Below, one piece after another: positions 1,988-61,792 of a stretch of 64,000 bases of DNA. The notes below the pieces were generated by a model that saw only the letters and a list, made by a program, of their open reading frames with translations, ran no database searches and was not told where the DNA came from. Both the position numbers and the translations under genes were made by a program. Positions within the stretch are counted from its first letter, which is position 1. Every line of letters starts with the position of its first letter. Location: positions 64,001 through 128,000 of IMG/VR virus record IMGVR_UViG_3300049988_000286. One strand, given 5' to 3'. This stretch comes from a virus (taxonomy: Duplodnaviria; Caudoviricetes).

Positions 1988-2386
1988 CTATGGCCACTCC
2001 GTGAGATCAACGTAGAGGACAGGATTGTTGGTCAGGATCGCGGCGATGATGTGGTGGTTACCGTCGATGATGTCGATGCCGTCAAGGACGACGATGCGCT
2101 CGCGATCATAGGCCTTGGCCTTCTTTGCCACGATGGCCTTTTGCGCCTTGGAGGCATCTCGCTGATACGCGTCCCAGAGTGTCAGATCGCCCCGGCGTGC
2201 CATGACACGCTCCTTTGCCTCCTCGGCAGTCATCGTCTCGACGGTAAGGGGATCGTCCCAATTCATCGGCGGACACGCGTGCGCGAGAGCCTCGCGCTCG
2301 TCCATCAATTCGTCAGAGTCATAGAGGTCGGTGATGAGCACCGTCTCGCCCACCGCATGTTCGATCAGGTTGATGAGGTAGCGCAT
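1988..2386 (-). CDS. ParB/Srx-like domain protein with MRxxIxLxE leader
   Basis: N-terminus MRYLINLIE; C-terminal IIDGNHHIIAA resembles the ParB-N DGHHR motif. Confidence 0.65.
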   Translation of the reverse strand: MRYLINLIEHAVGETVLITDLYDSDELMDEREALAHACPPMNWDDPLTVETMTAEEAKERVMARRGDLTLWDAYQRDASKAQKAIVAKKAKAYDRERIVVLDGIDIIDGNHHIIAAILTNNPVLYVDLTEWP

Positions 2387-2913
2387 CATGCCCTCCGCAT
2401 TGTCGTGTCGAAGGGTTGCGCCACTGAGGTGTCATCGACATCGAAATCGGGGAGGAGATCGACTCGCTTGACCATCACCGATGCGCCGGGATTGACCTTG
2501 ATCTCGTGCTCCCACGGCACTGCGAGGTTCTGCAAGATCGTGCGCGGCATATCGATATCGTGGGGATCGATGGTAGCGGTCAGGCGGTAGAGGCCGCAAT
2601 CCTCTCCCGCCGTGTCCCAGCCCGTCAGCGCATGAAGATTGATATTCAGATCGTGGCACCAGAACGTGCCGAGCGGGCCGGACAGGTACTTGGAAAGCTG
2701 GTTGGGGCGGAGGAGGACGTAGCGGTAGATGATCGGCGTCTGCATCTTGGTGTCGATCATGGCTTTCATCGCCGCTACATGCTCGTCGGTGATCTCGAAA
2801 TCGTTGCCATCTTCGTCATAACCGTGTCCCGCCGCCGCGTCGGTGTCGTGGGGGACCATCTTCTTCACCGCGTCGGCGAGACTATCCTCGAACAAATCAA
2901 TCCATTGTCGCAT
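2386..2913 (-). CDS. ADP-ribosyltransferase-like protein with MRxxIxLxE leader
   Basis: MRQWIDLFE; IYRYV...GTFWCHD...WEHEI resembles the R-S/T-ExE ART scaffold; TAAATA 4 nt upstream. Confidence 0.5.
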   Translation of the reverse strand: MRQWIDLFEDSLADAVKKMVPHDTDAAAGHGYDEDGNDFEITDEHVAAMKAMIDTKMQTPIIYRYVLLRPNQLSKYLSGPLGTFWCHDLNINLHALTGWDTAGEDCGLYRLTATIDPHDIDMPRTILQNLAVPWEHEIKVNPGASVMVKRVDLLPDFDVDDTSVAQPFDTTMRRA

Positions 2914-2917
2914 CAAC

Positions 2918-2923
2918 TATTTA
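2918..2923 (-). promoter_or_regulatory. TAAATA late-promoter motif
   Basis: TAAATA-N4-ATG. Confidence 0.7.
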
Positions 2924-3115
2924 GGGACGATCCATCTGCCCCTCGCGGAATACGACAACGGAGAAGAGGATCGCGGGAACCCACGTCCAAAATGAATTCT
3001 CTGCCACGCCCCAGCGCACGAGAGACTTGCTCATCATGTTCGCGAGGAAGCTATAGAGGAGGGCGTTGGCGAGAACGTGACCGAACGGCCCCCACGCGAC
3101 GATGCGGGCGATCAC
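2921..3115 (-). CDS. small membrane protein
   Basis: Two hydrophobic stretches; ATGA overlap. Confidence 0.6.
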   Translation of the reverse strand: MIARIVAWGPFGHVLANALLYSFLANMMSKSLVRWGVAENSFWTWVPAILFSVVVFREGQMDRP

Positions 3116-3333
3116 TTCTGCTCACCCACCACGATGGCGACAGGCCCCATGAACTCGCCCTTCGCGTTCACCACCGCGACATAATCGCGATCCTTGAACG
3201 AGATGGTCTTGAGCCCTTCCTTCGCACGACTGACGCGCTCGATGACATCTTCCTCGATAGTCACCGTACCCACGCCGTCCTCGGGCTCGCTGCTGTGCAG
3301 GGTGCGCACTGACGCACCAACGATGTAGCGCAT
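3112..3333 (-). CDS. hypothetical protein
   Basis: MRYIVGAS start overlapping the upstream stop (TGATG). Confidence 0.6.
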   Translation of the reverse strand: MRYIVGASVRTLHSSEPEDGVGTVTIEEDVIERVSRAKEGLKTISFKDRDYVAVVNAKGEFMGPVAIVVGEQK

Positions 3334-3677
3334 CACTCGTCCCCCAGATGCGAGATCGTTCGCGAGGCGAAATAGGCCGCTTCCTCGGCGACGGGGACGA
3401 CCACCGCTTCCGGGTAGTAGCGCTGGAGCATGATCTCGCGTGGGTTGGTCATCGCCGGGAATTCCGTCGCGAGTGCCCGCCACGCCTCGGTGGCCTCGAT
3501 CGCCGCGTAGCTCTCCTCCAAGGACATGGAGTGGCGCACCATCACGGGTTCGCGTGCCTTGTCGAGCAGCGCGTTGATACGGTCGACGTGGATGTCTGCC
3601 GCCGCATCGGTGAGGCTGTGAAGGAGGACGAGCGACTTGGTTTCGCCGTCGTCGAAGTCATAGACGATCTTGTTCAC
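3333..3677 (-). CDS. hypothetical protein
   Basis: GTG start after AAGGAG. Confidence 0.6.
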   Translation of the reverse strand: MNKIVYDFDDGETKSLVLLHSLTDAAADIHVDRINALLDKAREPVMVRHSMSLEESYAAIEATEAWRALATEFPAMTNPREIMLQRYYPEAVVVPVAEEAAYFASRTISHLGDE

Positions 3678-3720
3678 GATAATCTCCTTGTGCGCCCTTT
3701 GCACTAAAGGCAGAGTTCGG

Positions 3721-3876
3721 TCAAGGATTGTTTTCTTCGATGCGCTTTCGTTCCAGATAAGCGCGTGCCGCCTTTGCGGAAGCGGATTGATCGGGACCAG
3801 CCCGTGCCCGCATTGCGGCAAGCTGTTCGTCCCAGTATCGGGAACGCTCTGCATCGGTGGTCCACCGGCGGCTCAT
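3721..3876 (-). CDS. hypothetical protein
   Basis: MSRRWTT start overlapping the upstream TGA. Confidence 0.5.
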   Translation of the reverse strand: MSRRWTTDAERSRYWDEQLAAMRARAGPDQSASAKAARAYLERKRIEENNP

Positions 3877-4130
3877 CAGTAGAACCACACCCGATGGAGT
3901 GCGAGTTGCTCCTCCCAATCGCGGTTGAGATCGTAGACCTCTTGCACTCGCTGCATTGAGTGGGTGGCGTGGTACACTTCGACTTCTCTGCGCAACACCT
4001 CACCACCCTCCCGACGATAGACGGGATAGTCGCTGTAGTCGAAGCGGTCGCAGACCACCATCATATGGGTGAAACCATCTGCGGCTCCGTCTTCGAGCCA
4101 CTGCCGGATCATGTGTTGAGTAGCAGCCAT
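3876..4130 (-). CDS. conserved phage hypothetical protein
   Basis: THMMVVCDRFDYSDYPVY-type sequence recalled from phage genomes. Confidence 0.65.
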   Translation of the reverse strand: MAATQHMIRQWLEDGAADGFTHMMVVCDRFDYSDYPVYRREGGEVLRREVEVYHATHSMQRVQEVYDLNRDWEEQLALHRVWFY

Positions 4131-4171
4131 GAGGCTTGGTGATGGTTGCGGGGGATGGTGTCAAGATTTGT

Positions 4172-4259
4172 TGGTTCTCCCCCGAGGACTCGAACCTCCA
4201 TCCCTTACGAGAGCCCACGATTCAGAGCCGTGTCGCCTTACCAGTTAGCGGAGGGGAGA
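4172..4259 (-). tRNA. tRNA-Gln(CUG) with long variable arm
   Basis: Acceptor TCTCCCC/GGGGAGA, anticodon stem CACGG/TCGTG with loop CT-CTG-AA, T-loop TTCGAGT, encoded CCA, 16-nt variable region. Confidence 0.85.
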
Positions 4260-4268
4260 ATATGTGAT

Positions 4269-4342
4269 TGGATCGGGCGACAGGGATCGAACCTGTATTG
4301 TGAAGGCCAAAACTTCATGTCCTGCCATTAGACGACGCCCGA
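4269..4342 (-). tRNA. tRNA-Gln(UUG)
   Basis: Acceptor TCGGGCG/CGCCCGA (U1-A72), stem TGAAG/CTTCA with loop TT-TTG-GC, T-arm ACAGG-TTCGATC-CCTGT, CCA. Confidence 0.92.
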
Positions 4343-4477
4343 GCACAGGCGTCCGCGCGGACGCCGCTTCAGCGTTGCTGTCGTTGGGCCTCGAAGGGCA
4401 GCAGGGCGTGTGAATTGGTCACGAGTTATTTATCTCACAGTGTGCGCGGCGTTGTCAACAATCTTTTTCAACCACGA

Positions 4478-4483
4478 TAAATA
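4478..4483 (+). promoter_or_regulatory. TAAATA late-promoter motif
   Basis: TAAATA-N5-ATG. Confidence 0.7.
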
Positions 4484-4488
4484 TCGCC

Positions 4489-4920
4489 ATGCGCGATCTC
4501 ATCAACCTATTCGAAGACCAGCAGTGGCCAGCCACCATCTCGGGTGACGATCTCGCCCTGCATGTGCAAGAATTGCATCACACTCCCGAGGATTTCATCG
4601 ACGGTGACATCGAGAACAACATCGCTTCGTTTGGGGTCTATAACTTGCGCACTATTCCAATCACGGACATACGGCGCGGTATGTACACGATCTACGACGA
4701 TCTCGTGGGCGAGTATGCGGCAGTGACCACCCAAGCACCACCCGTGATCGTTGATCCCAGTCATGGATTGGTCATCGATGGTAATCATCGTGTCGAAGCA
4801 GCGGTGGCGAGAGGCGAGACGGAAATTCTCGCCTACGTGGGTGACCCAGAGACCTACTCCTACATCAGCAACGATGAGGATGAGGATGAGGATGACGAGT
4901 ACCGACCGAAGGGCTGGTAA
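4489..4920 (+). CDS. ParB/Srx-like domain protein with MRxxIxLxE leader
   Basis: MRDLINLFE; PPVIVD...VIDGNHRVEAA; acidic tail. Confidence 0.75.
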   Translation: MRDLINLFEDQQWPATISGDDLALHVQELHHTPEDFIDGDIENNIASFGVYNLRTIPITDIRRGMYTIYDDLVGEYAAVTTQAPPVIVDPSHGLVIDGNHRVEAAVARGETEILAYVGDPETYSYISNDEDEDEDDEYRPKGW

Positions 4921-4922
4921 GG

Positions 4923-5651: not shown

Positions 5652-5678
5652 GGAGGCGTGCTACCACCCCCATATCAG

Positions 5679-5963: not shown

Positions 5964-5964
5964 A

Positions 5965-6153: not shown

Positions 6154-6210
6154 CAGGGCTTCCTTTCGCCCCAGACCTACACCGAACTACTCTACTCGTC
6201 AAATCAATAT

Positions 6211-19681: not shown

Positions 19682-20131
19682 ATGCGCAAATTTATCAATC
19701 TGATCGAAGAGGCTAGAGCGATCCCCAGTGAGGTTGTGGATCGCATCTTGTCCGATCACCGCGCCAAGCGTGGCGTGAAAGTACCTGCGTCGGCGCGCTT
19801 GTGGCGCGGCGAGAGCGAGGAGTCGGGTTCTGGCATGGCCACCTACGGCCTCGGAACCTACTTCACCTGCGACCGCAAGTACGCGGCTCGGTACGGCACC
19901 GTGCGTGAAGTTCAACGCTCTATGCTCCCCTATAATTGCCTCCGCTTCGATACCATCAACGACTTCGAGATTTGGTATCAGACTGCCTTCAAGCTGATGG
20001 GCTACAATGACAATCGTGATGTATGGAAAGATTTCCACGGGATGGATGATTTCATTCGACATATCGATATGTCCGTTGACGGTCTTCAAATAGGCAAAGG
20101 CAAAGATGCCATGTTTGTGCTTTATCCGTAA
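19682..20131 (+). CDS. ADP-ribosyltransferase-like protein with MRxxIxLxE leader
   Basis: MRKFINLIEE; LWRGE...GLGTYFTCDRKYAARYG. Confidence 0.55.
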   Translation: MRKFINLIEEARAIPSEVVDRILSDHRAKRGVKVPASARLWRGESEESGSGMATYGLGTYFTCDRKYAARYGTVREVQRSMLPYNCLRFDTINDFEIWYQTAFKLMGYNDNRDVWKDFHGMDDFIRHIDMSVDGLQIGKGKDAMFVLYP

Positions 20132-21632: not shown

Positions 21633-22901
21633 ATGAGGTATCCGGTGGAAGCTAACCAAGAGTATAAATGCACATTCTGCGGCTTGCACAAAAATCAAGT
21701 CGATGTCCTCATTCGCGGTGAGGAAAACTCTCATGGCTTCATCTGTAATACTTGCGTCGATAAGTGCTACGATCTCGTCCACGGTGACGAAGATGCCTCC
21801 GAGGAGGAAACCGATGCGGTAACAGTCGAGGAGGCTCCGGCCGAGGAGCCTGAAAAGTCCCCGACCCCCGTGGCAATCAAGCAGTATCTGGACCAATACG
21901 TCGTGGGTCAGGAAACGGCAAAGATCACCGTTTCTGTCGCCGCGTACAACCACTACAAGCGCGTCACCAACCCCGATCCGCTCGCGGTTGAGATCGATAA
22001 ATCGAATATCCTGCTAATCGGCCCCACCGGCTGCGGCAAGACCCTCATCGCGCAGTCGCTGGCTCGTTACCTCGATGTGCCATGGGTCATGGCTGATGCC
22101 ACCTCTCTGACCGAAGCGGGCTATGTCGGCGAGGATGTGGAATCGATTATTGGACGCCTTCTCGCTGCCGCTGACTACAATGTCGGTATGGCGGAGCGCG
22201 GCATCGTCTTCCTCGACGAGATCGATAAGAAGAAGGCCAGCCGATCAGCCAGTTCGCAGCGCGATGTGTCGGGCGAGGGTGTGCAGCAAGCACTCCTCAA
22301 GCTGATCGAGGGCACGGAGATGATGGTGTCCCCGCCGGGCAAGAAGAACGCCGAGCGAGTAAAGATCAACACGAAGAACATCCTCTTCATCGTCTCCGGG
22401 GCTTTCGTGGGTCTCGATAAGCTGATCAAGAAAGAGAAGCGCGCAATCGGATTTGGTCTTGGTGTCGAGGCGGCAGCGACTTCGACAATGATCAGCGAGC
22501 ACTTGGTAGAGTTTGGTCTCATCCCCGAGTTGGTTGGTCGTCTGCCCGTCGTTGGTATCTTGGAGGAGTTGAACGAGGATCAACTCTATCATGTGCTGAC
22601 CGAGCCCCGCAACGCGATCACCAAGCAGTTCCGCGCGATGTTTAACCTCGATGGTGTCGATCTCGAATTCACCGACGAGGGGCTGCGCAGCCTTGCCCGC
22701 AAGGCGATTGCCAACAAGACGGGTGCGCGCGGTCTCCGAGGCCTGATCGAAGGCGCTCTCCTTACTACGCAGTATAATCTTCCCGACATGCGCGACATCG
22801 GGGTTGAAGTAGTAATCGTCAACGATGAAGTATTCACCGATGGGAAGCAGCCCACTGTGCGTTTTCGCAAAGAAGATATTGAAGCACAGCAGAGTGTGTG
22901 A
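21633..22901 (+). CDS. clpX: ATP-dependent Clp protease ATP-binding subunit ClpX
   Basis: C4 Zn finger, GPTGCGKT, EAGYVGEDVE, RDVSGEGVQQALLK, IGF loop, GARGLR. Confidence 0.97.
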   Translation: MRYPVEANQEYKCTFCGLHKNQVDVLIRGEENSHGFICNTCVDKCYDLVHGDEDASEEETDAVTVEEAPAEEPEKSPTPVAIKQYLDQYVVGQETAKITVSVAAYNHYKRVTNPDPLAVEIDKSNILLIGPTGCGKTLIAQSLARYLDVPWVMADATSLTEAGYVGEDVESIIGRLLAAADYNVGMAERGIVFLDEIDKKKASRSASSQRDVSGEGVQQALLKLIEGTEMMVSPPGKKNAERVKINTKNILFIVSGAFVGLDKLIKKEKRAIGFGLGVEAAATSTMISEHLVEFGLIPELVGRLPVVGILEELNEDQLYHVLTEPRNAITKQFRAMFNLDGVDLEFTDEGLRSLARKAIANKTGARGLRGLIEGALLTTQYNLPDMRDIGVEVVIVNDEVFTDGKQPTVRFRKEDIEAQQSV

Positions 22902-26076: not shown

Positions 26077-27432
26077 ATGAACGCGCTAAAGATTCTCGAA
26101 GACGCCCGCACCAAGATGGCCATGTCGGTCACGACACCGACGAACCTGATGAGCACGAAATCGCTCGAAGAGATGCGGACCAAGATCGCCCGCGACATCA
26201 CGCGTGCGCGCATCCAGCTTCTCCTCACCCAGCCGTTCTTCGGCAACATGGCGATGAGCCTTCAGGTGATCCTGACCGATCAGGAAAAGCACGGCTGGTG
26301 CAACACCGCCGCCACCGATGGCAAGCGCCTCTACATGAACATCTTCTTCATCTCGAAGCTGACGTTCGACGAACTCCTGTTCGTCGTCGCCCACGAGGTG
26401 CTCCACGTCGTGTTCGACCACCTGTCGCGTCGGCAGGGTCGCGATCCCGAATACTACAACATGGCGGCTGATTACGTCATCAACTACATCTTGGTGAAGA
26501 ACAAGATCGGCACCATGCCGCCGGTCGGCCTGTTCAGCGAGACGTACAACGACTCCTACAATTCGGAGCAGGTGTACGAGATGCTGAAAAAGGATGAGGT
26601 CGAGATCGAGATGCCCCTCGATCAGCACCTCGACGCCGCCGGTGGCGCGGACGGCAACACCGATGGCGACGGCAAGCAGAAGGGCTCGGGCAAGGGTTCG
26701 ATCAAGGTTCGCGTCAAGGGCAACGGCGACGGTCCCCCGGTCCTCTCCGACGAGGAGTTGGAGGAAATTCGCGCCGAAGTGCTCGCCCGCACCATTCAGG
26801 CGGTTCAGGCCGCTGACGCGCAGGAGAGCGCTGGCTGCGTTCCGGCTGGCGTGCGCCGGATGATCGCCGAGTTGACCGAACCCAAGCTGGACTGGCGCTC
26901 GATGCTCGACGCCACGATCCGGTCCCAGATCAAGTGCGACTACACCTTCACGCAGCTTGCCCGCGTGGAGATCGGTGGCGGCTTCATCTTCCCGGCGGAG
27001 GATGACGATTATGTCGCCGAGGCGGACATCAAGATCGACACCTCGGGCTCGATGGGCGAGGAGTTGCTGCGCGAGATCATGTCCGAGATCAAGGGGATCA
27101 TGACGACGTTCGGGCAGTTCAAGCTGCGCGTCTCGTGCTTCGACGCCAAGGCGTACACGATCCACAACTTCACCGAGCAGAACATCGACGAGATCGACGA
27201 CTTCAAGCTGGAAGGCGGCGGCGGCACCCTGTTCGGCTGCTTCTGGGAGCAGTTGAAGGAGGAGGCGATCATCCCGGAGCGTCTCGTCGTGTTCACCGAT
27301 GGTTACCCCTGCGACTCGTGGGGCGATGGCTTCGAGAACTACTGTGAGACCCTTTGGGTCGTCCATGGTGGCTCGAAGACAAAAGCGCCGTGGGGGACGA
27401 CGGTGTTCTACGAGGACATGCATAAGAATTGA
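26077..27432 (+). CDS. metallopeptidase-like (HExxH) plus vWA domain protein (DUF2201-like)
   Basis: TAATDG, AHEVLH, AAD..IN; IDTSGSM MIDAS, GGGGT, VFTDGY. Confidence 0.9.
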   Translation: MNALKILEDARTKMAMSVTTPTNLMSTKSLEEMRTKIARDITRARIQLLLTQPFFGNMAMSLQVILTDQEKHGWCNTAATDGKRLYMNIFFISKLTFDELLFVVAHEVLHVVFDHLSRRQGRDPEYYNMAADYVINYILVKNKIGTMPPVGLFSETYNDSYNSEQVYEMLKKDEVEIEMPLDQHLDAAGGADGNTDGDGKQKGSGKGSIKVRVKGNGDGPPVLSDEELEEIRAEVLARTIQAVQAADAQESAGCVPAGVRRMIAELTEPKLDWRSMLDATIRSQIKCDYTFTQLARVEIGGGFIFPAEDDDYVAEADIKIDTSGSMGEELLREIMSEIKGIMTTFGQFKLRVSCFDAKAYTIHNFTEQNIDEIDDFKLEGGGGTLFGCFWEQLKEEAIIPERLVVFTDGYPCDSWGDGFENYCETLWVVHGGSKTKAPWGTTVFYEDMHKN

Positions 27433-28531: not shown

Positions 28532-29131
28532 ATGACAATGAATCTGATCCCGATGGTGGTTGAACAGGATGGGCGCGGAGAGCGTTCCTACGACCTGATG
28601 TCGCGTCTCCAGAAGGAGCGTATCATCTTCCTCAACGGCCCCGTGGATGATCACATGGCCCATATCGCCACGATGCAGCTTCTATACCTCGACAGCATCG
28701 CGGACACCAAGAAGCCCGAACCGATCAATATCTACATCAACTCCCCCGGCGGCAGCGTCTTGGCCGGGCTGGCTATCGCCGACACCATGGCGAGCGTGTC
28801 GTCCCCTATTGCCACCACCGCAATGGGCATGGCGATGTCGATGGGCGCTTATCTCCTCTCCTGTGGTGATCCCGGTATGCGCTCGGCTACCGAGGGTGTG
28901 CGCATCATGTGCCATCAGGTGTCAAGCGGCACGCGGGGCACAGCGGCGGATATGAAGATCAGCATGGCGGAGACTCTCTACCTCGATGAGTATCTGGCCG
29001 CGCGTCTGGCGAAGAATTGCGGCAAGTCCATCGAGCAGTATCGCCGCGATACCGATCGTGATTTCTACATGAGCGCTGCCGAGGGCGTAGAGTACGGGAT
29101 CATCGACCACGTAATCAAAAACAAGCGTTAA
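28532..29131 (+). CDS. clpP: ATP-dependent Clp protease proteolytic subunit ClpP
   Basis: [37 protein letters not shown] (Ser), IMCHQ (His), DRD. Confidence 0.97.
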
Positions 29132-38237: not shown

Positions 38238-38314
38238 GCTCGTGTGGCTGAAATGGGAATGGCTACGGACACTAAATCCGTAAGATGTGGGTTCGATCCC
38301 CACGGCGAGCGCCA
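38238..38314 (+). tRNA. tRNA with anticodon CUA (amber suppressor-type)
   Basis: GCTCGTG/GGCGAGC acceptor (one mismatch), ACGGA-CACTAAA-TCCGT, GTGGG-TTCGATC-CCCAC, G73, CCA. Confidence 0.8.
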
Positions 38315-40514: not shown

Positions 40515-40904
40515 TCAGATCAGGTCTGCTGCCGTGACATGTATAGGGACGGCGGACGCGATAGAGCCTATAATTTCAAGGCTCGCCTTCCAAGACTTAT
40601 CGCTGTCGGCCCACTCGGCGTGGACCTGTGTCTCACGCTTTCCTAACGCCCGAAAGACCACAGGCTCCTCGATACCGGGCATGTCGGGGATCGGCGAAAG
40701 GATGCGGGCGAGAGGGAGAGCAAAGGTGATATAATCGTCACCGTTGTCTTCGATATTCTCGGCATAATAATCGCTGACTTCTTCTATAGCCCAATAACTG
40801 GTCGGGTTAATGCCATCCCGAAGAATTGCTTCGAGGTTCTGTTTCGGGGTGACATGGTAAAGCACTTGTGACGCGCTCTCCACGAGTTTGATCCAATTTC
40901 GCAT
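40515..40904 (-). CDS. ART/Tpt1-like domain protein with MRxxIxLxE leader
   Basis: MRNWIKLVE; LYHVT...NL..IL..GI...Y...A; TAAATA-N5-ATG. Confidence 0.6.
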   Translation of the reverse strand: MRNWIKLVESASQVLYHVTPKQNLEAILRDGINPTSYWAIEEVSDYYAENIEDNGDDYITFALPLARILSPIPDMPGIEEPVVFRALGKRETQVHAEWADSDKSWKASLEIIGSIASAVPIHVTAADLI

Positions 40905-40967
40905 CCCCCTATTTAGGGGCGCGCCCCGCCAAACGGTGGGAGATCGAACGAACGCTTGCCGCGACTG

Positions 40968-42350: not shown

Positions 42351-42425
42351 TGGTGGGAATACTCGGATTCGAACCGAGGACACACGGTTTTAGGGACCGC
42401 TGTTCTACCGCTGAACTATACTCCC
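42351..42425 (-). tRNA. tRNA with anticodon CUA (amber suppressor-type, Trp-like anticodon arm)
   Basis: GGGAGTA/TATTCCC, GTTC-AGCGGTA-GAAC, GCGGT-CCCTAAA-ACCGT, CTCGG-TTCGAAT-CCGAG, A73, CCA. Confidence 0.85.
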
Positions 42426-45954: not shown

Positions 45955-46641
45955 TCAGCGTCGAACCAAAAACTCTTTGCAGTTGAGCGAATTGGTCAAC
46001 CACACGATCCTATCTCGATCGATCTCCTCGTTGAGCACCTTACCGCGCCGCCGCGTTTCTTCGTTGCGCTCGATCAAGTCATCGTTCCAAGAGGTGATCT
46101 CATCCCTGATATCGTCGCCATCGGTGATGAAGTTACGATGGCGGTCATAGATGTTGTAGTACTGGGGTGCTGATTTGTTCTTGACGTAATGCCGCCCCAT
46201 ATAGGTAGTGTAGCCGATGCGATCATAGGCATCGACGAGACGATCTATCTCTTTGTCGGTCAGGATGTCGCGAAAGTATGATTCGAAACCCGGCCCATGG
46301 TTGCGCCAACCTGCGAAACCTTCCGCTACGCGACGATCACTGGTCCATGAATTCAAGACACCGGTCTTCCAGCCCTCATAGCCGGTATCGAGCGCGAGAC
46401 CCCGGTAGAGGGTCACCACAACAGGAAGGCGAGCCCGCACGGGAGCGAACGCTGCATCGATCTCCTGCCAGACAGCATCTTGAGCGATGAAATGCTTTTC
46501 GAGAGCGCCTCCCGTCCAGTTTGCGGCTTCCCACTGCTGAATGGCGCGCTGCGCATCAGAGCCGAGTGTCGCCTTCGCACGCTTCGCCAAGGCGAAAACA
46601 TCACTCGGCGTGGCGCGCTCAAAGAGATCACAGGCACGCAT
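45955..46641 (-). CDS. ADP-ribosyltransferase-like protein with short leader
   Basis: MRACDLFE; TLYRGL...SWTSD..VA..FA...KEFLV. Confidence 0.65.
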   Translation of the reverse strand: MRACDLFERATPSDVFALAKRAKATLGSDAQRAIQQWEAANWTGGALEKHFIAQDAVWQEIDAAFAPVRARLPVVVTLYRGLALDTGYEGWKTGVLNSWTSDRRVAEGFAGWRNHGPGFESYFRDILTDKEIDRLVDAYDRIGYTTYMGRHYVKNKSAPQYYNIYDRHRNFITDGDDIRDEITSWNDDLIERNEETRRRGKVLNEEIDRDRIVWLTNSLNCKEFLVRR

Positions 46642-47084
46642 CAGCGAGGCACTACACGGTAGACGAGGCGCAACTTGGCGCGATTGGCTCCAAGGGTGTT
46701 GTGCCAGTCGCCATCCCGGAAGGAGATGGCGTGACCCTGCCGCTGCGCGTGAATGGATGCGTAGAGGTGCACGTCGGGATCGTTCTCGCGCAACCACACG
46801 GCGCTCTGGTTGACGGTCATGCCGCCGGGACGGATATGGGGATGGCACCACGGCATCTTGTAATAGCCATCAAGACGGTAGCCGAGTTGCGTGAAGATTT
46901 GGCTGGTCTGGATGGGAGTCAGGCCATTCCGACCAAAGAAGGGTTTGGCCACTTCCCAGACTTCATTCCAAGTCCTGCCAGTCAAGTTGGAGACAGCGAT
47001 AATCGCGCACGAGCCGATGTCGCGGGCTTGTTCGGGAGAGAAGGTGCCGCGAGTGCTGGCCTCGAAGAGGTCATGTAGGAGCAT
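46641..47084 (-). CDS. papain-like (C39-type) peptidase fold protein with short leader
   Basis: MLLHDLFE; SCAIIAVS.LTG...GHA....DG.W.NT. Confidence 0.5.
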   Translation of the reverse strand: MLLHDLFEASTRGTFSPEQARDIGSCAIIAVSNLTGRTWNEVWEVAKPFFGRNGLTPIQTSQIFTQLGYRLDGYYKMPWCHPHIRPGGMTVNQSAVWLRENDPDVHLYASIHAQRQGHAISFRDGDWHNTLGANRAKLRLVYRVVPR

Positions 47085-47089
47085 AGGCC

Positions 47090-47105
47090 TATTTAGGCCT
47101 AAATA
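47090..47105. promoter_or_regulatory. perfect palindrome made of two divergent TAAATA motifs
   Basis: TATTTAGGCCTAAATA; ATGs 5 and 4 nt away. Confidence 0.75.
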
Positions 47106-47109: not shown

Positions 47110-47718
47110 ATGAGAGAGTTGATCGATTTGATGGAAGACGGCGCACGCGACGACGTTCGCGCATTTTCACGAGACTTCAACGATCCCGCGATCGACCAGC
47201 GTGTTCAGCAGCAAGCCGCCCGCAAGAACCCCAAGTGGAAGAAGAGCCTCACCGCGCTCATGACCAAGCACGGCTTCAGCCTGATTGGCGCGGGGATCAA
47301 TGGCGCAGTGTTCCAAAACGCCGCCTACCCCTTTGTCCTCAAGGTCTATCGCAACGATCGCACCTACGATGAGTGGCTGCATTTTGCCCGCACGAACCGC
47401 GCCAATTCCTTGGTGCCACGGATCAAGGGGCAGCCGCGCCGCCTCAACGGCATCTTCTCCGTAGTGCGCCTCGAACTCCTTCAATCGTGCAATGTCGCGC
47501 TCGCCAACAAACTCGTGGACGAGATTCAAGAAGATATGGTGAGTTATGAGCGCGTGGCGGATTCCGAGAACCCAGATCGCCGTGCTGTTGCAAACTTCCT
47601 CCGAGATTGGGAACCCGCCTTTGACCTCTCGGCCCACAATGTCATGCAGCGTCCGAACGGCGAGATGGTGATCGTCGATCCCCTCTACCTCGAACCCGGC
47701 CGCGAGATCGACTGGTAG
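47110..47718 (+). CDS. protein-kinase-like protein with MRxxIxLxE leader
   Basis: MRELIDLME; IGAGINGAVF, VLKVY, DLSAHNVM, IVDP. Confidence 0.8.
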   Translation: MRELIDLMEDGARDDVRAFSRDFNDPAIDQRVQQQAARKNPKWKKSLTALMTKHGFSLIGAGINGAVFQNAAYPFVLKVYRNDRTYDEWLHFARTNRANSLVPRIKGQPRRLNGIFSVVRLELLQSCNVALANKLVDEIQEDMVSYERVADSENPDRRAVANFLRDWEPAFDLSAHNVMQRPNGEMVIVDPLYLEPGREIDW

Positions 47719-49379: not shown

Positions 49380-49402
49380 ACGAGGCGAGCGATAAATACT
49401 CG

Positions 49403-49936
49403 ATGAGGATATTCGAGCTATCGCGCCCCGACGTTCAAGAAGATGTTGCCCCAATCCTCGCGCGCGGCGGCTGGTCGATATATGGCGAAGGATATTACGC
49501 GCAAGTTTATGGTAGGGATGACAAAGATTACGTCTTGAAGGTCTTCGATTACCGAGATCGCGGCTACGCCGAGTTCCTCAAGCTTGTTGCCACCAACGCC
49601 AATCCGCACTTTCCAAAGATCATCGGTAAGCCGATCAAGATAACCTCGGGGTATTGGGCCGTCCGGATGGAGAAGCTCACGCCAGCGCCAGAGGCACTTC
49701 AAATCGGCATCTATCTCTCAACTCGCGATAATGGACCCAACCCGCGAAACTCACTCCAGATAGCAGCGCACGAACAGATCATGGAGTTGTTCGAGAGCCA
49801 GCCGTTGTTGAAGGATGCACTCGACTTGATAATCGACAACATCCTTCACAACAGTAGCATCGGGGCAGACCTCCACAAGGAAAACGTCATGAAGCGCTCC
49901 GATGGCACTCTGGTGATAATCGATCCGGTAAACTGA
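49403..49936 (+). CDS. protein-kinase-like protein with short leader
   Basis: MRIFEL; GEGYYAQVY, VLKVF, DLHKENVM, IIDP; TAAATA-N4-ATG. Confidence 0.8.
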   Translation: MRIFELSRPDVQEDVAPILARGGWSIYGEGYYAQVYGRDDKDYVLKVFDYRDRGYAEFLKLVATNANPHFPKIIGKPIKITSGYWAVRMEKLTPAPEALQIGIYLSTRDNGPNPRNSLQIAAHEQIMELFESQPLLKDALDLIIDNILHNSSIGADLHKENVMKRSDGTLVIIDPVN

Positions 49937-51124: not shown

Positions 51125-51136
51125 GTTAAATACTTG

Positions 51137-51727
51137 ATGAAGGATTGGATCAACCTCGTCGAGCGTGCCGCCAACGGTGACGCAAATATCCGCCACGCAG
51201 CGGAAATCCTCCACGCCCATATGGTGCACGGACGCGCGCAGGATTGGCAGTACGAGAAGCTGCTGACCCTCCTTCCCCGCCCCGCGCAGGGCGCGACCCT
51301 CTATCGTGCAGAGCCGATGCTCGTGGAGGATATCGAGCGTCTCGATCAGGGTATCCGCTCGCCGATCAAGTCGCACTTCTTCTCATGGACGAAGGACGCG
51401 TCTTCGCTCAAGACGATCGCAATCGAAGTCAAGATGAATGCCCACACACTTCGCGATACGGGCAAACCGTTCAAGATCGTAGTGATCAAGAAGAACTTCC
51501 CCGCAGAGCAGATCGTCGTCGATCTGAACCAATTCCGACACAACTACCCCGATTCATTGACCCCGGATATGATGCGCGACCTAGCTATCCATTTCAACGA
51601 AGAGGAAGTCCTCGTCCTTGAGCGCGATCGTGTCATGAACCGACAGAACACGGTGGTGCTCAAGGATTCGATGACCAACCGGATCAAGGCCATGTTGGGT
51701 ATGAGTAACTCGGCGGTTAATGTCTAA
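51137..51727 (+). CDS. ADP-ribosyltransferase-like protein with MRxxIxLxE leader
   Basis: MKDWINLVE; TLYRAE...FSWTKD...NEEEVLV. Confidence 0.65.
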   Translation: MKDWINLVERAANGDANIRHAAEILHAHMVHGRAQDWQYEKLLTLLPRPAQGATLYRAEPMLVEDIERLDQGIRSPIKSHFFSWTKDASSLKTIAIEVKMNAHTLRDTGKPFKIVVIKKNFPAEQIVVDLNQFRHNYPDSLTPDMMRDLAIHFNEEEVLVLERDRVMNRQNTVVLKDSMTNRIKAMLGMSNSAVNV

Positions 51728-51750
51728 TTGGTCAATCGTCTAAATAGGTG

Positions 51751-52890
51751 ATGCGAGACATTATCGATATCATCACGGAAGCGGCACTGACAGAAGGTGG
51801 CGTGGAGAAGATTTCTATTCGGAACGGGATGCCGTTTTCTGTTTATCAGAATCCCAGCCGAGCAGTCGTGGTCAATATGGGACCATCGATGGAGTTTCGT
51901 GGCGTTATCGCCGACGACGATCTCTATATCTGGGACGCCTTCGACGGAACACATGACGATGTTGCCCAAGAATTGATAATCGATTGGCAGATCGAGTTCA
52001 AAGTCAAGGATAACAAGGTTGATAACGAGGAGGCCTTGGCGCATCGTCGCTTTCGACGTGCATTCGGTGATGGCATCGAGGCTGTGCTTGAGGAAATGCC
52101 CATCCAGTCCATCACGCGGCTCGGCGACTGGGACAAGTCATCGTCGTTCCGCGACGGTAAGGATCGCAAACTCCTGACATCGGAGAAGGCCATTCAGAAG
52201 ATGAAGGCGATGTGGAAATACCCCGATGAGGTAGATTACAACATCCTGCTGATCAACAACGCGGAGGCGAACCGCCACACCGAAGTGGGCGTCGTTCCTC
52301 GCGATAAACTTGCCAGCATGTTCCCGAAAACGATTTCCGCGATCGAGCCGCTGCTCCGCGACGATCAGGTCAACATCATCTTCACGAACAACAAGGGGGC
52401 GGCGCGCGTTCCCCTCACCGGCTGGGTAATGGCTCACCGCTTCGGTCACGCCATGCAGCGCTTCGGCACCAGCTACTATTTCGATGAGGCGGTCAAGGAG
52501 TTGGACAAAGCATTGGGTGAACTGATGGTCCACTACGGCGCTCGCCCGAACGACAAGGCGACGTTCCGCCGACCCTCCGCGCTCAACTCCACCAATTCGC
52601 GTGGTCTCCTCCATGCTCTGTGCACCTTCCGATCCGCGCGCGAGAAGAAATTGCGCAACTCGATGGAAGCCGTGCACGAATTGTTTGCCCAATACATCTT
52701 CACCGGTCGGATCAAATTCAACCCCATCCCCCGCCATTACCAGTATGGAGCGGTCAACTACACGTTCCGGGGCGATGAGGAGGATTATGAAGCGGAACAT
52801 GATCTCTTTGCCGATACCGTGATCTACAATCTCGAAAATTATTTCGAGACCGCGATCCACAACGTTGTCGGAAAAGTGCTGGTGATGTAA
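51751..52890 (+). CDS. hypothetical protein with MRxxIxIxxE leader
   Basis: MRDIIDIITE; W..AHRFGHA; TAAATA-N4-ATG. Confidence 0.75.
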   Translation: MRDIIDIITEAALTEGGVEKISIRNGMPFSVYQNPSRAVVVNMGPSMEFRGVIADDDLYIWDAFDGTHDDVAQELIIDWQIEFKVKDNKVDNEEALAHRRFRRAFGDGIEAVLEEMPIQSITRLGDWDKSSSFRDGKDRKLLTSEKAIQKMKAMWKYPDEVDYNILLINNAEANRHTEVGVVPRDKLASMFPKTISAIEPLLRDDQVNIIFTNNKGAARVPLTGWVMAHRFGHAMQRFGTSYYFDEAVKELDKALGELMVHYGARPNDKATFRRPSALNSTNSRGLLHALCTFRSAREKKLRNSMEAVHELFAQYIFTGRIKFNPIPRHYQYGAVNYTFRGDEEDYEAEHDLFADTVIYNLENYFETAIHNVVGKVLVM

Positions 52891-57419: not shown

Positions 57420-58238
57420 TTATCCCGAATAGCCGATCTTCGACAATACCGTATAGAGGCCGCGCATCGCTTTGTCGGTGGTGGGCTTGACCGTCGCGGC
57501 CATCCGGGGATTGTGATAGAAATAATTGATTTCCGTGTCCGCGCTCCGGATAAGGGGGAAGTCCTCGAAGCCATATCCGGCATTGCTGCCAGTCTTCATC
57601 TCGATCCAGATACCGAGACGCAGTGCTCGCCCCGATCCATGATTGACGTTCTGCAATCCCACTTCCTGCACGCTGTCCCGATATTCCTTCTTCCACAGGG
57701 TCATGAAGGGAGGACTACCATCCTTCTCAAGGATGGGGAGATCGCCGATGTGGGTCAGTGAGGCCAAGCGGTCGAATTGTTTCCAGCCGTGGAACTCATC
57801 CTCGGATGCCGGTGTGAGGCGCGTCTCGCGGGTGCGCCGCTTGCGCGCTGCCCAGAAGGCCTTGGCCTCGCTCGACTGCGCCTGTAGCGCGGCATCACCA
57901 ATCGAACCATCGGCGGGGTGGACGATGTAACCATGGGCTTCAAGGTGGTCGAGCATCGCGGTGTAGAGGCCGAACCTCTTAAATTGATCTTCCACCACCG
58001 ATTTATACGGCACGACGTTCATACCGTTTGCTCCCGCGATCTGCGGACCCTCCGGGATGACCAAGGTCTGCGCTACCTTCTCACGCGCGGGCCGGAAGAT
58101 GTTCTCTAAAGCGACGTAGGCTTCGCACAGCACGCCGCCGTGGGCGGGTCGATGGCTGATGTAGAAGACAGGGCCGCGCTCATCGTAGCGGCTATAGGCT
58201 TTGAGGGTGGATCGTTCTAGAAGCTGGGTGGCACGCAT
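57420..58238 (-). CDS. GNAT-like domain protein with short leader
   Basis: MRATQLLE; DQFKRFGLYTAM.D.L...QS.EAKAFW; TAAATA-N4-ATG. Confidence 0.55.
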   Translation of the reverse strand: MRATQLLERSTLKAYSRYDERGPVFYISHRPAHGGVLCEAYVALENIFRPAREKVAQTLVIPEGPQIAGANGMNVVPYKSVVEDQFKRFGLYTAMLDHLEAHGYIVHPADGSIGDAALQAQSSEAKAFWAARKRRTRETRLTPASEDEFHGWKQFDRLASLTHIGDLPILEKDGSPPFMTLWKKEYRDSVQEVGLQNVNHGSGRALRLGIWIEMKTGSNAGYGFEDFPLIRSADTEINYFYHNPRMAATVKPTTDKAMRGLYTVLSKIGYSG

Positions 58239-58245
58239 CGCATAT

Positions 58246-58521
58246 TTATTCGCGCCACCACAGCAAATGCTCGCCATCGAAATTGTCGCGGACGAGGACG
58301 AAGATGGGTTGCGAGGCGTCGCTACGGATGAAGTGCGTGACTTCGGTGGAGAGACGCTGGGGCGAGCAATTATCCAGACCGACAATCTCGTAGCCGGGAC
58401 CGAGTTGTAGCTGGATATTAGGCGCATGGGTGCTGCGCATCACGAGCGGTTTGCCTCCGAGGAGACGCGTGACCGTTTCCTTGATGTCAGAGGCGTCGCG
58501 AAGTAGTGCGAAGTCAATCAT
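58246..58521 (-). CDS. hypothetical protein
   Basis: ATGA overlap. Confidence 0.55.
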   Translation of the reverse strand: MIDFALLRDASDIKETVTRLLGGKPLVMRSTHAPNIQLQLGPGYEIVGLDNCSPQRLSTEVTHFIRSDASQPIFVLVRDNFDGEHLLWWRE

Positions 58522-59245: not shown

Positions 59246-59289
59246 GTCTCTTCTCCTTGACCCTACCTATAAACGATTATATCGAACTG

Positions 59290-59493
59290 TCAAGCGAAAG
59301 GCCATGGGACGGGGAACGTAACGGTAACGACGATTGCCGCCGTGATGCACAGCACATTCACAACGATCGCGGCGAAGAGATTTTCCCTTTGCACGTCTCG
59401 GTCGCATTTCTTCCATGTCGCGTATGCAACTGCGACAAGAAAACAGTAGAAGGCGAGCAGCACTACCGCGCACGCCAGCCATGCGAAGATCAC
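59290..59493 (-). CDS. small membrane protein
   Basis: Two TM helices. Confidence 0.65.
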   Translation of the reverse strand: MIFAWLACAVVLLAFYCFLVAVAYATWKKCDRDVQRENLFAAIVVNVLCITAAIVVTVTFPVPWPFA

Positions 59494-60365
59494 ACCGCCA
59501 CCCGATCAAAGCCCTTGAGCGTCTCCGCCCGCACCCGCTCACCGAGATCGCGATCATGGAAGCGACGCATCGAGATCGTCCGGTGGTTTGCGAAAGGCAC
59601 CATGGGCATCGTAAAGCCATCGGCGATCCCGGCCTCGATCGCATCAAGGGCCTCGTCCTTCGTCCAGCTATAGATGCCGGAGGCGGGGTTGCGAACCTCC
59701 GTGGTGCGACCCACGGATTCCGCATAACCGGTCTCCTCCGCGATGCTGCTGAACACCAGCGGCTCACCGTGCGCCTCGCGCCAGACGTTGCCCCGCGACT
59801 CCAAGGTTAGCGATTCCAAACCGCGCGAGGTCGAGTAAGCGGATTGACCCGTCACCAGATCATACGCGGAGAGGTTGTAACAGTCGGCCTTCTGCGGACC
59901 CCAGCCACCATAACTGATGCCCTGAACGATAAAGTATTCCCGGCGCTCGCCCGCAACTGTGACGCGATCCCCTTCCCAGAACGGCGTGTCGGGGAGATCG
60001 CCGATTCGGACGGAATTGCGGAAATAATCACCGCGCGCAATCGTGCACTTGATCTCGTGATTGATCCACTCATCACGACGCTGCTGCTCGGTAATGGGAT
60101 CGGCGAAGTTGATGTAATTGTTCCAGCCCTGCACGTCCTCGTCCGCGCCATCGAAGCGCAAGATCGAGGTGCCGTCCTGTTCGTAGATGCCGGGCTCGCG
60201 GAATGCGCGACCCACGCCGGTGCGCGACTCATGGCGAATGAACCGCGTCTTGCCTACGATCGTGCCGACCGCACCATCGTCGGGGACACCTCGGCCATGC
60301 CAGCCACGCGTCTCCCGATCCATGTTGAAGACGATCCGGTCACCGATGCGAGCATTGTCGAGCAT
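59490..60365 (-). CDS. hypothetical protein (SH3-like repeats)
   Basis: AAGGAG RBS; IGDRI / EGDRVTV motifs. Confidence 0.7.
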   Translation of the reverse strand: MLDNARIGDRIVFNMDRETRGWHGRGVPDDGAVGTIVGKTRFIRHESRTGVGRAFREPGIYEQDGTSILRFDGADEDVQGWNNYINFADPITEQQRRDEWINHEIKCTIARGDYFRNSVRIGDLPDTPFWEGDRVTVAGERREYFIVQGISYGGWGPQKADCYNLSAYDLVTGQSAYSTSRGLESLTLESRGNVWREAHGEPLVFSSIAEETGYAESVGRTTEVRNPASGIYSWTKDEALDAIEAGIADGFTMPMVPFANHRTISMRRFHDRDLGERVRAETLKGFDRVAV

Positions 60366-60427
60366 GTTGATCTCCTTGCGCCGCCTATACGATTAATCAC
60401 CACGAACTGTCAACGCCTAAATATCGC

Positions 60428-61177
60428 ATGAGCGTATTCCAAGGACCGGGCCGGGGTGGCGCGGGCACACCGAGTAGTGGTGGCCCGGATGCTGTCGAGG
60501 GCATCAATCTCGACATGGAGGAAATGTCGCAGACCGAGCGGATGAACTACCTCACGGCTCGGCTGGGCAGCGCCGACATGGCAGCCGCCTACCTGCGATC
60601 CAGTGTTGGTGCTGATCCCGCCGTGGAGGGGGAGGCCGTGTCTGGAATTGATCAGACATCGAAGGTGGTGGGTTGTCAGGAATTCAACGACTCCACCCCA
60701 TTATCGACCCGCATCTCCAAACACTATAGTCTCGCGATGTTGAGCAGCAACACCGCTTACTCCCGCTACCCGATCGTCCCCCATTCCGGCTTGAGCAAGG
60801 CCGCGATCATGTGCAATCTCAAGCACCTCGCGGTCAATTCCCTCGATATGATCCGTGACTGGCATCCCGCCGCCAAAGTTGGCTCGGGATTCCGCTCCAA
60901 CTCCTCCACTGATCACGGCAAGGGAAGCGCTGCCGACCTCTACTTCTACAACAAGGGTTCGACGCAGCGGATGAACGTCAAGGGACTGGTTGAGGTAGCC
61001 CGGTATCTCATCCATGATCTCAAGGTGCCCTTTACCCAGATGCTCGTAGAGTCGAGTGGAAACGGCACGGGATGGATACATATCGCCAATCGTCGCGCGG
61101 GGAACAACTCCGCAATGCGGGTTGGCTATTCGCTCAACAACGGCGGCAGCTTCCATCCCGGTCTGCCCAAGCTTTGA
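60428..61177 (+). CDS. peptidase M15-like Zn cell-wall peptidase
   Basis: HFSL-like HYSLAML, SGFRS...S.H..G.AADL, WIHI; TAAATA-N4-ATG. Confidence 0.8.
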   Translation: MSVFQGPGRGGAGTPSSGGPDAVEGINLDMEEMSQTERMNYLTARLGSADMAAAYLRSSVGADPAVEGEAVSGIDQTSKVVGCQEFNDSTPLSTRISKHYSLAMLSSNTAYSRYPIVPHSGLSKAAIMCNLKHLAVNSLDMIRDWHPAAKVGSGFRSNSSTDHGKGSAADLYFYNKGSTQRMNVKGLVEVARYLIHDLKVPFTQMLVESSGNGTGWIHIANRRAGNNSAMRVGYSLNNGGSFHPGLPKL

Positions 61178-61189
61178 TCTAAATAGTCG

Positions 61190-61402
61190 ATGAGAAACTG
61201 GATTGATCTGATGAGCGAGAATGCCCTCACCCCCCATGATGTGATGTTTCGTCGGCATCAGCGTGAAGGTGCGGCCAAGCATCTAGCCGACTATGGCCAA
61301 CAGCTTACTCTCGACGACTTCATGAACATGCGCTACGGGCAGCCCGAAGATGAGGCGCAAGCCGACTACGATCACTTCGTGAGCACTGGTGAGATTCGTT
61401 AA
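61190..61402 (+). CDS. small protein with MRxxIxL leader
   Basis: MRNWIDLMSE; TAAATA-N4-ATG. Confidence 0.7.
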   Translation: MRNWIDLMSENALTPHDVMFRRHQREGAAKHLADYGQQLTLDDFMNMRYGQPEDEAQADYDHFVSTGEIR

Positions 61403-61405
61403 GCC

Positions 61406-61792
61406 ATGCTGCTACGAGACCTCATGGAACGCCGCGATACCACAACCGACTGGGGGTATTGGATCACACCGTTGGGTGCCTATTACCCCGTAGGTTCGCA
61501 CGGTCACGAAGCCTATATTCGCAAAGAAGAAGGTATGACCTCCGGTCAGGCGATGATCCGGGGCTGGGTCCGAGTGGTGACCGCCAACATGTTTCAGGTC
61601 GAGGCGTGCTTTGATCTCCTGTCATCGCGTGCCAAGGCGACGATGGTCCGGCTAGCCCGTCAGGGCGACTATCATCAGTTCGTCGCTGACGTTTATCGCG
61701 ATGACGGGCAGTATAGCGTCAACCGCTACGCGATCCTGCACGATTTTCTGCGCGGGATCGAGGCATTGTCTCACGCTAGCGAGACGGTCTGA
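61406..61792 (+). CDS. hypothetical protein with short leader
   Basis: MLLRDLME; YWITP.G...H...I...GWVRV. Confidence 0.7.
   Translation: MLLRDLMERRDTTTDWGYWITPLGAYYPVGSHGHEAYIRKEEGMTSGQAMIRGWVRVVTANMFQVEACFDLLSSRAKATMVRLARQGDYHQFVADVYRDDGQYSVNRYAILHDFLRGIEALSHASETV

Follow-up and report, generated by a model that had tools for sequence, protein, structure and literature searches.

An N-terminal peptide resembling the T4 capsid-targeting sequence on a large, diverse set of predicted proteins in an uncultivated T4-related megaphage

Why should 14 largely unrelated genes in one part of a viral genome begin with nearly the same eight to ten amino acids? The question is raised by a stretch of 64,000 nucleotides, hereafter called the window, which comprises bases 64001-128000 of the 499,572-bp IMG/VR virus record IMGVR_UViG_3300049988_000286. 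The record belongs to an uncultivated virus from a leaf/phyllosphere metagenome, was rated complete by CheckV, and has a GC content of about 58%. A preliminary description of the window had listed 14 shared N-termini, and all of them were found at their coordinates and on their strands, the one at 49403 (MRIFEL) being degenerate. The description had also placed ten of the genes 4-5 nt behind the hexamer TAAATA, and ten were found so. From its pattern and by analogy with phage T4, the shared N-terminus (the tag) is probably a T4-type capsid-targeting propeptide carried by an unusually large set of cargo proteins.

The distribution of the tag was determined over the whole record. Regular expressions were applied to the N-termini of our own gene calls (801 genes), with internal Met positions as a control. 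Form A was defined as M[RK]xx[ILVM]x[ILVM]x(x)E and is typified by MRxWIxLxE, form B is MLLxDLFE, and form C was defined as M[RK]xx(x)-hydrophobic-hydrophobic-(x)E and is typified by MRxx(E/Q)(I/L)xE. TAAATA occurred in only 171 copies on both strands of the 499,572 bp, of which 92 preceded N4-5-ATG and an open reading frame (ORF) of at least 50 aa. The tag was present in 41 of the 90 TAAATA-N4/5-ATG genes, compared with 13 of the 711 other genes and 14 of the 3530 internal Met positions, and its association with this late-type start had a Fisher odds ratio of 45 (p = 3e-32). The preliminary description had considered that the motif might be equally frequent among non-late genes, which these counts contradict. 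In a logo made independently of the regular expressions, the late N-termini differed from the others in R2 (46% vs. 6%), W4 (13% vs. 1%), I5 (33% vs. 10%), and E9 (25% vs. 5%). Several of the 13 tagged genes without a direct TAAATA were second genes of TAAATA units. About 5 of these 13 non-late matches looked like chance, such as MKVMIVEDE at genome position 17219, and about 10 degenerate tags escaped the search, such as MRKLIDLILNE, MFLQDLFE, MRIVEIRSNP, and MRNFIDLFND. Because of these few chance matches and missed tags around the 54 regex members, the family size is given as about 55-60. The family has thus grown from 14 to about 55-60 in the genome scan that the preliminary description had proposed, and the tag was also met in other uncultivated phages. 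Tagged gene starts were absent from the 155-250 kb region, which includes the head module, while the window holds 14 of them.

TAAATA also headed the terminase large subunit gene and tail-fibre and virion structural genes, and the promoter class is therefore probably morphogenetic, that is, late. A gp55-like late sigma factor is encoded by the phage (phrog_12791, 243 bits). The start of more than 90 genes at 4-5 nt after TAAATA implies, at the level of the predicted starts, leaderless late mRNAs. This arrangement raises the question of whether the DNA rather than the peptide was conserved. In that case, the peptide would have no function, and what is conserved in these leaderless late mRNAs would act on the nucleotide level or at translation initiation, as an initial transcribed sequence, a context for 70S loading, or a recombination cassette. 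Most tagged genes indeed start 4-5 nt after TAAATA, with the ATG at or beside +1, and the neighbouring cassettes at genome 348670 and 349167 have nearly identical promoter-plus-tag DNA. However, 49 of the 90 TAAATA-N4/5-ATG genes were untagged and started with MA, MS, MD, or MT. Furthermore, some tagged genes stood behind Shine-Dalgarno (SD)-type leaders or were translationally coupled, both in this genome and in other phages. Two to four synonymous codons were used at each conserved residue: CGC, CGA, AGA, and CGT for R2, CTC, CTA, CTG, and TTG for L7, and GAA and GAG for E9. The peptide was also kept in IMG/VR and metagenome contigs of 31-56% GC, with or without TAAATA, and in genomes of 31-58% GC overall. 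Because of the codon variety, the untagged TAAATA genes, the SD-led tagged genes, and the spread over this GC range, selection acts on the peptide. The nucleotide-level explanation is hardly credible and was rejected on the first three of these grounds, which likewise answer the suggestion of the preliminary description that the motif could be a by-product of leaderless translation.

What kind of peptide would be kept in this way? After Met and a basic residue at position 2 (or Leu-Leu), the tag had a residue of aromatic or hydrophobic type at position 4, Ile or Leu at positions 5-7, and a final (L/I)-x-E. Counted from its end, P3 was L or I in 45 of the 54 tagged proteins, P1 was E at positions 8-10 in 46 of the 54, and P1' was mostly A. 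In T4, the capsid-targeting sequence (CTS) of the internal proteins (IPs) IPI, IPII, and IPIII and of Alt is removed by the prohead protease gp21 (Mullaney & Black 1996; PMC9026906, PMC3012670, PMC5694885). The first 10 residues of IPIII are enough for packaging; residues 4 and 7 of the CTS serve targeting, and residues 8 and 10 serve processing, while an Asp in position 10 prevents cutting and leaves targeting intact (PMC9026906). According to Repoila et al. (1994), as cited in PMC3012670 and PMC9026906, the internal proteins of T-even phages are diverse, and the CTS is their only common part. The T4 sequences were read from AF158101, with the cut site marked here by a slash. The IPII/IPIII leader given in the preliminary description, MKTYQEFIAE, was confirmed there (ipII and ipIII, MKTYQEFIAE/A), and the other sites were MELITELFDE/D in Alt, MAKINELLRE/S in gp24, MLKEQLIAE/A in gp22, MNEPQLLIE/T in gp21, and ...FLTE/AEIGG in gp23. 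The T4 strings nearest to the tag were MELITELFDE of Alt and MAKINELLRE of gp24. A 682-aa late protein of the phage (G000:C1:6939-8987, minus strand) starts with MRNFIDLFND and has Asp in place of the tag Glu; by analogy with T4, it might be packaged uncut.

The preliminary description had proposed to seek a gp21-like protease elsewhere in the genome. A gp21-type prohead protease is encoded by the phage (Peptidase_S77, PF03420, 92 bits; genome 213874-214494). It matched the T4 gp21 structure 5JBL with E = 2.8e-17 and kept the catalytic His and Ser (GELDHP and GVSSRG). A T4 gp23-type major capsid protein (MCP) is also encoded (PF07068, 243 bits), and the order of the head module is portal, two small/core-position genes, protease, scaffold-position gene, and MCP. 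Motifs of the (L/I)xE type were found in the head-module proteins themselves. The protease starts with MSHIPLTE, the scaffold-position protein (genome 214596-215840) starts with MPKTIEEILNE, a core-position protein holds ...HLLNE, and the MCP contains LFE-5, LLE-17, LLE-42, and LME-50, the last followed by AAS. In addition, a second short gp23/gp24-like ORF (about 206-242 aa, starting with M(F/I)SPLF...) was observed at G000:C1:484363-485091, distant from the head module, and at L162:3692-4312, where it is kept beside tagged cargo. It could be a relative of the vertex protein or a fragment.

By its capsid protein, the nearest cultured relative of the phage was Sinorhizobium phage Phosso (469 kb; MCP 66% identity), and the Rak2-like jumbo phages came next with about 62% MCP identity. 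Over 160 uncultivated contigs have MCPs of 60-75% identity. When 10 kb of the window were compared with cultured phages by megablast, no match was obtained. As judged from these protein comparisons, the phage is a 500-kb T4-related megaphage of the Rak2/Phosso-like type. In Phosso, only MRASELFE and an ...ILNE/S protein, encoded beside the scaffold gene, were found. A homologue of the ADP-ribosyltransferase (ART)-like cargo protein described below is present in phage phiM9 with 44% identity; a virion proteome was sought in the phiM9 paper, and none was there. The small tag-bearing IMG/VR contigs were fragments of 5-19% without a protease or a clear MCP.

The tag was also modular. After removal of the first 14 residues, the 54 tagged proteins formed 46 BLAST clusters, and the shared part was limited to residues 1-10. 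Accordingly, the claim that the cargo is non-homologous largely holds on the genome-wide scale. Paralogues were found with different forms of the tag, namely the genome genes 154077 (C), 41098 (B), and 348177 (A), the pair of the window gene 51751 (A) and the genome gene 447330 (C, MRYHELVE), and the pair of the genome genes 149931 (A) and 334108 (C). The orthologues of the window gene 46641-47084 in other phages begin with MLLHDLFE, MRIHELLPE, MRFGDLME, or MNDLRTWIQLVE. In the contig L164 (422-1562), the adjacent genes MNDLRKWVRLIE and MNDLRTWIQLVE share a 12-residue variant, MNDLRxWxxLxE, with three extra N-terminal residues, and the first of them (MNDLRKWVRLIE) stands behind TAAATA-N5. The occurrence of the variant on two different cargo genes indicates that this lineage has its own tag variant. 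Among the 23 orthologues of 45955-46641, a tag of the MRYxE(I/L)FE type was kept and was followed by an indel-rich linker. In the AlphaFold models of 45955-46641 and 46641-47084, the tag was left disordered: the predicted local distance difference test (pLDDT) score was below 50 for residues 1-8 and 1-13, respectively, while the means were 89 and 81. The tags were densely clustered in some other contigs; L150 has four within 4 kb, and L153 has five within 3 kb. To judge by these comparisons, the tag behaves as a detachable address that is specific to the phage lineage rather than to the cargo.

Two further features of the tagged genes were observed. Four consecutive TAAATA-ATG-tag cassettes with unrelated cargo (MRTLIDLVE, MRNWINLVE, MRNWINLVE, and MRNWINLITE) lie at G000:C1:348177-350243. 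They include the near-identical cassettes at 348670 and 349167, whose likeness suggests duplication or gene conversion at the tag. Moreover, a paralogous family of 380-450-aa proteins (G000:C1:43826-44968, 177080-178297, 454875-456221, and 459812-460981) has a conserved R(S/R)NPxLN segment after the tag (MRIVEIRSNPDLNP, MFLQDLFERRSNPARNP, MRYHNLVEARRNPDLN, and MRAIQIIEARSNPALN).

An address need not lead to the capsid. The tag could send the proteins to the tail, the baseplate, the membrane, or a host complex, or it could be an oligomerisation helix shared by descent. A short helix (H3-9) was seen with low confidence in the tag of one model, which would suit the latter. However, true tail-fibre and terminase genes have the same type of promoter and no tag, no transmembrane-like hydrophobic stretch was found in the tagged proteins, and the mature parts are unrelated. 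Moreover, the tag matches the N-terminal motifs of the head-module proteins of the phage itself. Another destination is thus highly improbable.

The tag could also be a degron, that is, an N-terminal recognition tag by which the phage ClpXP or a host AAA+ protease keeps potentially toxic late enzymes short-lived, with no link to the capsid. The window encodes ClpX (zf-C4_ClpX and AAA_2 domains; 21645-22901, plus strand) and ClpP (PF00574, 204 bits; 28532-29131, plus strand), and some N-terminal signals of the Met-basic-hydrophobic kind are reportedly read by ClpX. However, the MLLxDLFE form has no basic residue and is nevertheless interchangeable with the other forms on orthologous and paralogous cargo, and the feature common to all forms is (L/I)-x-E, the gp21 motif. 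Furthermore, ClpP is present in Phosso and in the uncultivated relative G006, both of which are without the expansion, and T4 has the same kind of tag but encodes no ClpXP. A degron is therefore very unlikely. ClpP was also found in the relative G009. A gene that lies between those for ClpX and ClpP in the window (26077-27432, plus strand) encodes a putative metallopeptidase of the DUF2201 type (136 bits) that also has a VWA-like domain (50 bits).

What would such an address deliver? The product of 45955-46641 is predicted to have the R-S-E ADP-ribosyltransferase fold (the clade of T4 Alt/ModA, C3, and Certhrax) and would parallel the packaged Alt of T4. Its residues R80, S98, and E223 were invariant among the 23 orthologues, and its AlphaFold2 model had a pLDDT of 89. 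The top 13 structural matches (VIA) were R-S-E ADP-ribosyltransferases, except for rank 11, which was the ART-like domain of anthrax lethal factor, with moderate Z values of 4.5-6.0. Its language-model neighbours belonged to the same clan, and Foldseek of the model against PDB gave weak matches (E 0.1-0.5). A second kind of ART may be encoded by 40515-40904, whose product contains LYHVT and resembled DarT/PARP-type transferases with a template modelling score of 0.55-0.62. The product of 46641-47084 is predicted to be a C39/papain-fold peptidase with conserved catalytic residues. In this protein, C26, H118, D124, and N129 were invariant in 4 orthologues, the model had a pLDDT of 81, and the best 50 structural matches were all papain-fold peptidases, led by the C39 domains of ComA/PCAT1 with Z 8.2-8.8 over 104-107 residues. 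In addition, the products of 47110-47718 and 49403-49936 matched phage protein-kinase PHROGs, the only matches that PHROGs gave.

The domain types named in the preliminary description thus fared unevenly. The ART fold (45955-46641), the papain fold (46641-47084), and the kinase PHROG matches were borne out, but the ParB-like label (1988-2386 and 4489-4920) came down to a DGNHR-type motif, and the GNAT label to a weak Pfam match outside the window. Pfam, searched with 24 tagged proteins, gave hardly any match even with the cut-off relaxed to E <= 1, and next to none for the 14 proteins of the window. Orphans make up most of the tagged set, and the label of enzyme is solid for only a few members. 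The isoelectric point (pI) of the mature parts ranged from acidic to basic.

The nature of the cargo bears on a further explanation, in which the tag is indeed a prohead-protease propeptide and takes the proteins into the assembly core, but the proteins are accessory scaffold or core parts that are degraded or kept in the capsid, or zymogens that the protease activates late in the producing cell. The evidence from the tag, the protease, and the presumed late timing also fits this explanation. The T4 core proteins gp67, gp68, and gp22 have similar N-termini and are degraded instead of injected, and many of the cargo proteins are acidic, like core peptides. However, folded enzyme-like domains (ART, C39 peptidase, and kinase) have no obvious role in assembly, and 46 unrelated families are hard to square with a structural scaffold. 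The T4 precedent for enzyme cargo, Alt, is moreover one of ejection. Undelivered core parts or zymogens are accordingly rather unlikely.

Several results weigh against capsid targeting. The likeness of the tag to the T4 CTS (MKTYQEFIAE) is at the level of the pattern, with a basic residue at 2, an aromatic one at 4, and a hydrophobic pair before x-E, and 9 residues are too few for homology to be shown. The head-module genes do not themselves stand behind TAAATA-N4-ATG. Hhalign of the ART-like cargo against T4 Alt gave a probability of 1.6% over 15 columns around LYRG, and BLAST gave no match. Unlike the basic IPs of T4, 23 of the 54 mature parts are acidic (pI <6), and about 55 cargo species are far above the number known for T4. 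The phage-encoded ClpX and ClpP could read N-terminal tags. Phosso lacks the expansion: it gave 0 class-A matches, and its matches of the class B/C type were about as frequent as in the control. G006, a relative with a complete genome of 382 kb, has only about 8 C-type tags, including one on an MYHGT protein. Because of the lack of the expansion in Phosso and the few tags of G006, nothing can be transferred from cultured phages. RNA runs were searched for the phage sequence for the mapping of late starts, and none of them contains it. Apart from these points, T4 ipI, ipII, ipIII, alt, gp22, gp67, and gp68 had no BLAST match in the phage proteome.

All of the in silico checks proposed in the preliminary description favoured capsid targeting, in a circumstantial way. 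Under a capsid-targeting mechanism, the tagged genes would be transcribed late from TAAATA (gp55-type) promoters, mostly into leaderless mRNAs, and because of this late transcription their products would be made together with the head proteins. The tag would bind the scaffolding core, so that the protein would be enclosed as the gp23-like shell assembles. The gp21-like serine protease would then cut after the tag Glu and free the mature protein inside the head, where it would perhaps first become active. At the next infection, the cargo would exit with the DNA and act ahead of phage gene expression. Besides many orphans, the cargo would comprise two kinds of ADP-ribosyltransferase-like protein, ParB-motif proteins, kinase-like proteins, and a C39/papain-fold peptidase. 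By analogy with T4, four steps are inferred, namely binding to the scaffold, cleavage, packaging, and ejection. The full statement, that one megaphage uses one 9-residue tag to pack at least 50 different proteins, many of them enzymes (two types of ADP-ribosyltransferase, a C39-type peptidase, kinases, and ParB-like nucleases), and injects these along with its DNA, might equally well prove right or wrong.

How does this system compare with known ones? Like the T4 CTS, the tag is an N-terminal peptide of about 10 residues on otherwise unrelated proteins, and ends with hydrophobic-x-Glu; position 4 is aromatic or hydrophobic, and position 7 is Ile, Leu, or Phe. In both phages the genes are late (here, as predicted from the TAAATA motif), a gp21-type S77 protease is encoded, and one type of cargo is (here, by prediction) an ADP-ribosyltransferase, as is Alt. 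In contrast to the handful of tagged proteins in T4, about 55-60 in 46 families were found here. There are three forms, none of them identical to MKTYQEFIAE, mostly within a TAAATA-N4-ATG-tag cassette; many cargo proteins are acidic; and the system is known from sequence alone. The internal-protein genes of the T-even phages similarly combine a conserved address tag with fast-changing, probably anti-defence cargo. The present set differs in its scale, larger by an order of magnitude, in its enzyme-like rather than small basic cargo, and in its Rak2/Phosso-like lineage.

In phiKZ, 201phi2-1, and SPN3US, propeptides of ejection proteins are cut by a gp21-related protease at (S/A/G)-x-E (PMC5694885, PMC7411985). 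These phages resemble the present one in being giant, in having many packaged proteins and processing C-terminal to Glu by a homologous protease (both here by prediction), and in paralogues that share N-termini. However, their propeptides mostly have at least 100 residues and a small P3, and only about 8 proteins are processed in SPN3US, whereas the tag here has 8-10 residues and a T4-like L/I at P3. Polyvalent proteins of phages and conjugative elements reportedly co-deliver ART, kinase, ParB-like, and papain-like peptidase domains. Similar domain types were predicted here, with one weak Kinase-PolyVal match (17 bits), but each domain is a separate small tagged protein instead of a part of a giant multidomain protein, and the Pfam PolyVal models stayed below their cut-offs. 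The Dar anti-restriction proteins of phage P1 become part of the head and enter the cell together with the DNA (PMC9024508, PMC12810830). In P1, they are incorporated by ordered protein-protein interactions without a short shared cleavable tag, and the proteins are not homologous to those described here.

The mechanism itself is thus known from the T4 CTS. What is new is the scale, with 46 families among about 55-60 tagged proteins, the interchangeability of the three forms of the tag, the fixed cassette of putative late promoter, ATG, and tag with its mostly leaderless starts, and the predicted enzyme-rich cargo in the Rak2/Phosso-like megaphage lineage. The literature found placed the CTS in T4 and the T-even phages and long propeptides in phiKZ-like phages, and described no expansion of this kind. 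In uncultivated viruses, the identification of phage-injected proteins is difficult. Should the tag act as it does in T4, it would provide a list, read from sequence, of what a giant phage brings in before gene expression. The 'injectome' of uncultivated T4-related jumbo phages would then be predictable from metagenomes, and the effector repertoire would be on the scale of the effector sets of bacterial secretion systems. The principle of the T4 CTS would have been scaled up on the order of tenfold in this lineage, with the late promoter-ATG-tag cassette as a plug-in site that captures new cargo genes. The family would also be a focused list of candidates for anti-defence and takeover functions, with about 55 proteins in 46 families that are mostly unannotated and rich in host-modifying enzyme folds. 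Furthermore, the tag, being short, could be tried as a candidate signal for the packaging of foreign proteins in such capsids.

The tagged genes of the window lie between 1988 and 61792. At the left end, 2386..2913 (minus strand; 175 aa; MRQWIDLFE) has TAAATA at 2918-2923 (minus), 4 nt before the ATG. It is followed in the same unit by 1988..2386 (minus; 132 aa; MRYLINLIE), the start of which overlaps the stop of 2386-2913 and the product of which holds a DGNHH ParB-like motif. A DGNHR ParB-like motif occurs in the product of 4489..4920 (plus; 143 aa; MRDLINLFE), which has TAAATA at 4478-4483, 5 nt before the ATG, and a paralogue in the genome gene 31331. The gene 19682..20131 (plus; 149 aa; MRKFINLIEE) has no TAAATA upstream on its own strand. 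The gene 40515..40904 (minus; 129 aa), which gives a lead to a DarT/PARP-like ADP-ribosyltransferase fold, has MRNWIKLVE followed by LYHVT, and its TAAATA is at 40910-40915 (minus).

The putative C39/papain-fold cysteine peptidase gene 46641..47084 (minus; 147 aa; MLLHDLFE) stands behind TAAATA at 47090-47095 (minus), and the candidate R-S-E ADP-ribosyltransferase gene 45955..46641 (minus; 228 aa; MRACDLFE) is second in the unit. In the opposite direction, the protein-kinase-like gene 47110..47718 (plus; 202 aa; MRELIDLME; phrog_15752 and phrog_2828) has TAAATA at 47100-47105. The two boxes stand back to back at 47090-47105 in the palindrome TATTTAGGCCTAAATA and serve these divergent tagged genes. 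The gene with the degenerate tag, 49403..49936 (plus; 177 aa; MRIFEL), has TAAATA at 49393-49398 and is kinase-like (phrog_15752; the Kinase-PolyVal match of 17 bits, below cut-off). Downstream lie 51137..51727 (plus; 196 aa; MKDWINLVE; TAAATA 51127-51132), which is ART-like by its LYRA...SWTKD motif only, and 51751..52890 (plus; 379 aa; MRDIIDIITE; TAAATA 51741-51746), which is zincin/ATLF-like by language-model features only. They are followed by 57420..58238 (minus; 272 aa; MRATQLLE), with TAAATA at 58243-58248 (minus). At the right end, 61190..61402 (plus; 70 aa; MRNWIDLMSE; TAAATA 61180-61185) is followed in its unit by 61406..61792 (plus; 128 aa; MLLRDLME), which begins 3 nt past its stop. 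The four genes without a TAAATA of their own had been described as downstream members of such units. This applies to the starts at 2386 (minus), 46641 (minus), and 61406 (plus), each directly after a TAAATA-led tagged gene, but was not confirmed for 19682 (plus).

Two tRNA genes with the anticodon CUA (amber-suppressor type; labelled 'Pyl' by ARAGORN) were also observed in the window, at 38238-38314 (plus) and 42351-42425 (minus). TAG was the stop codon of 92 of the 801 predicted genes, 17 of which were late or tagged.

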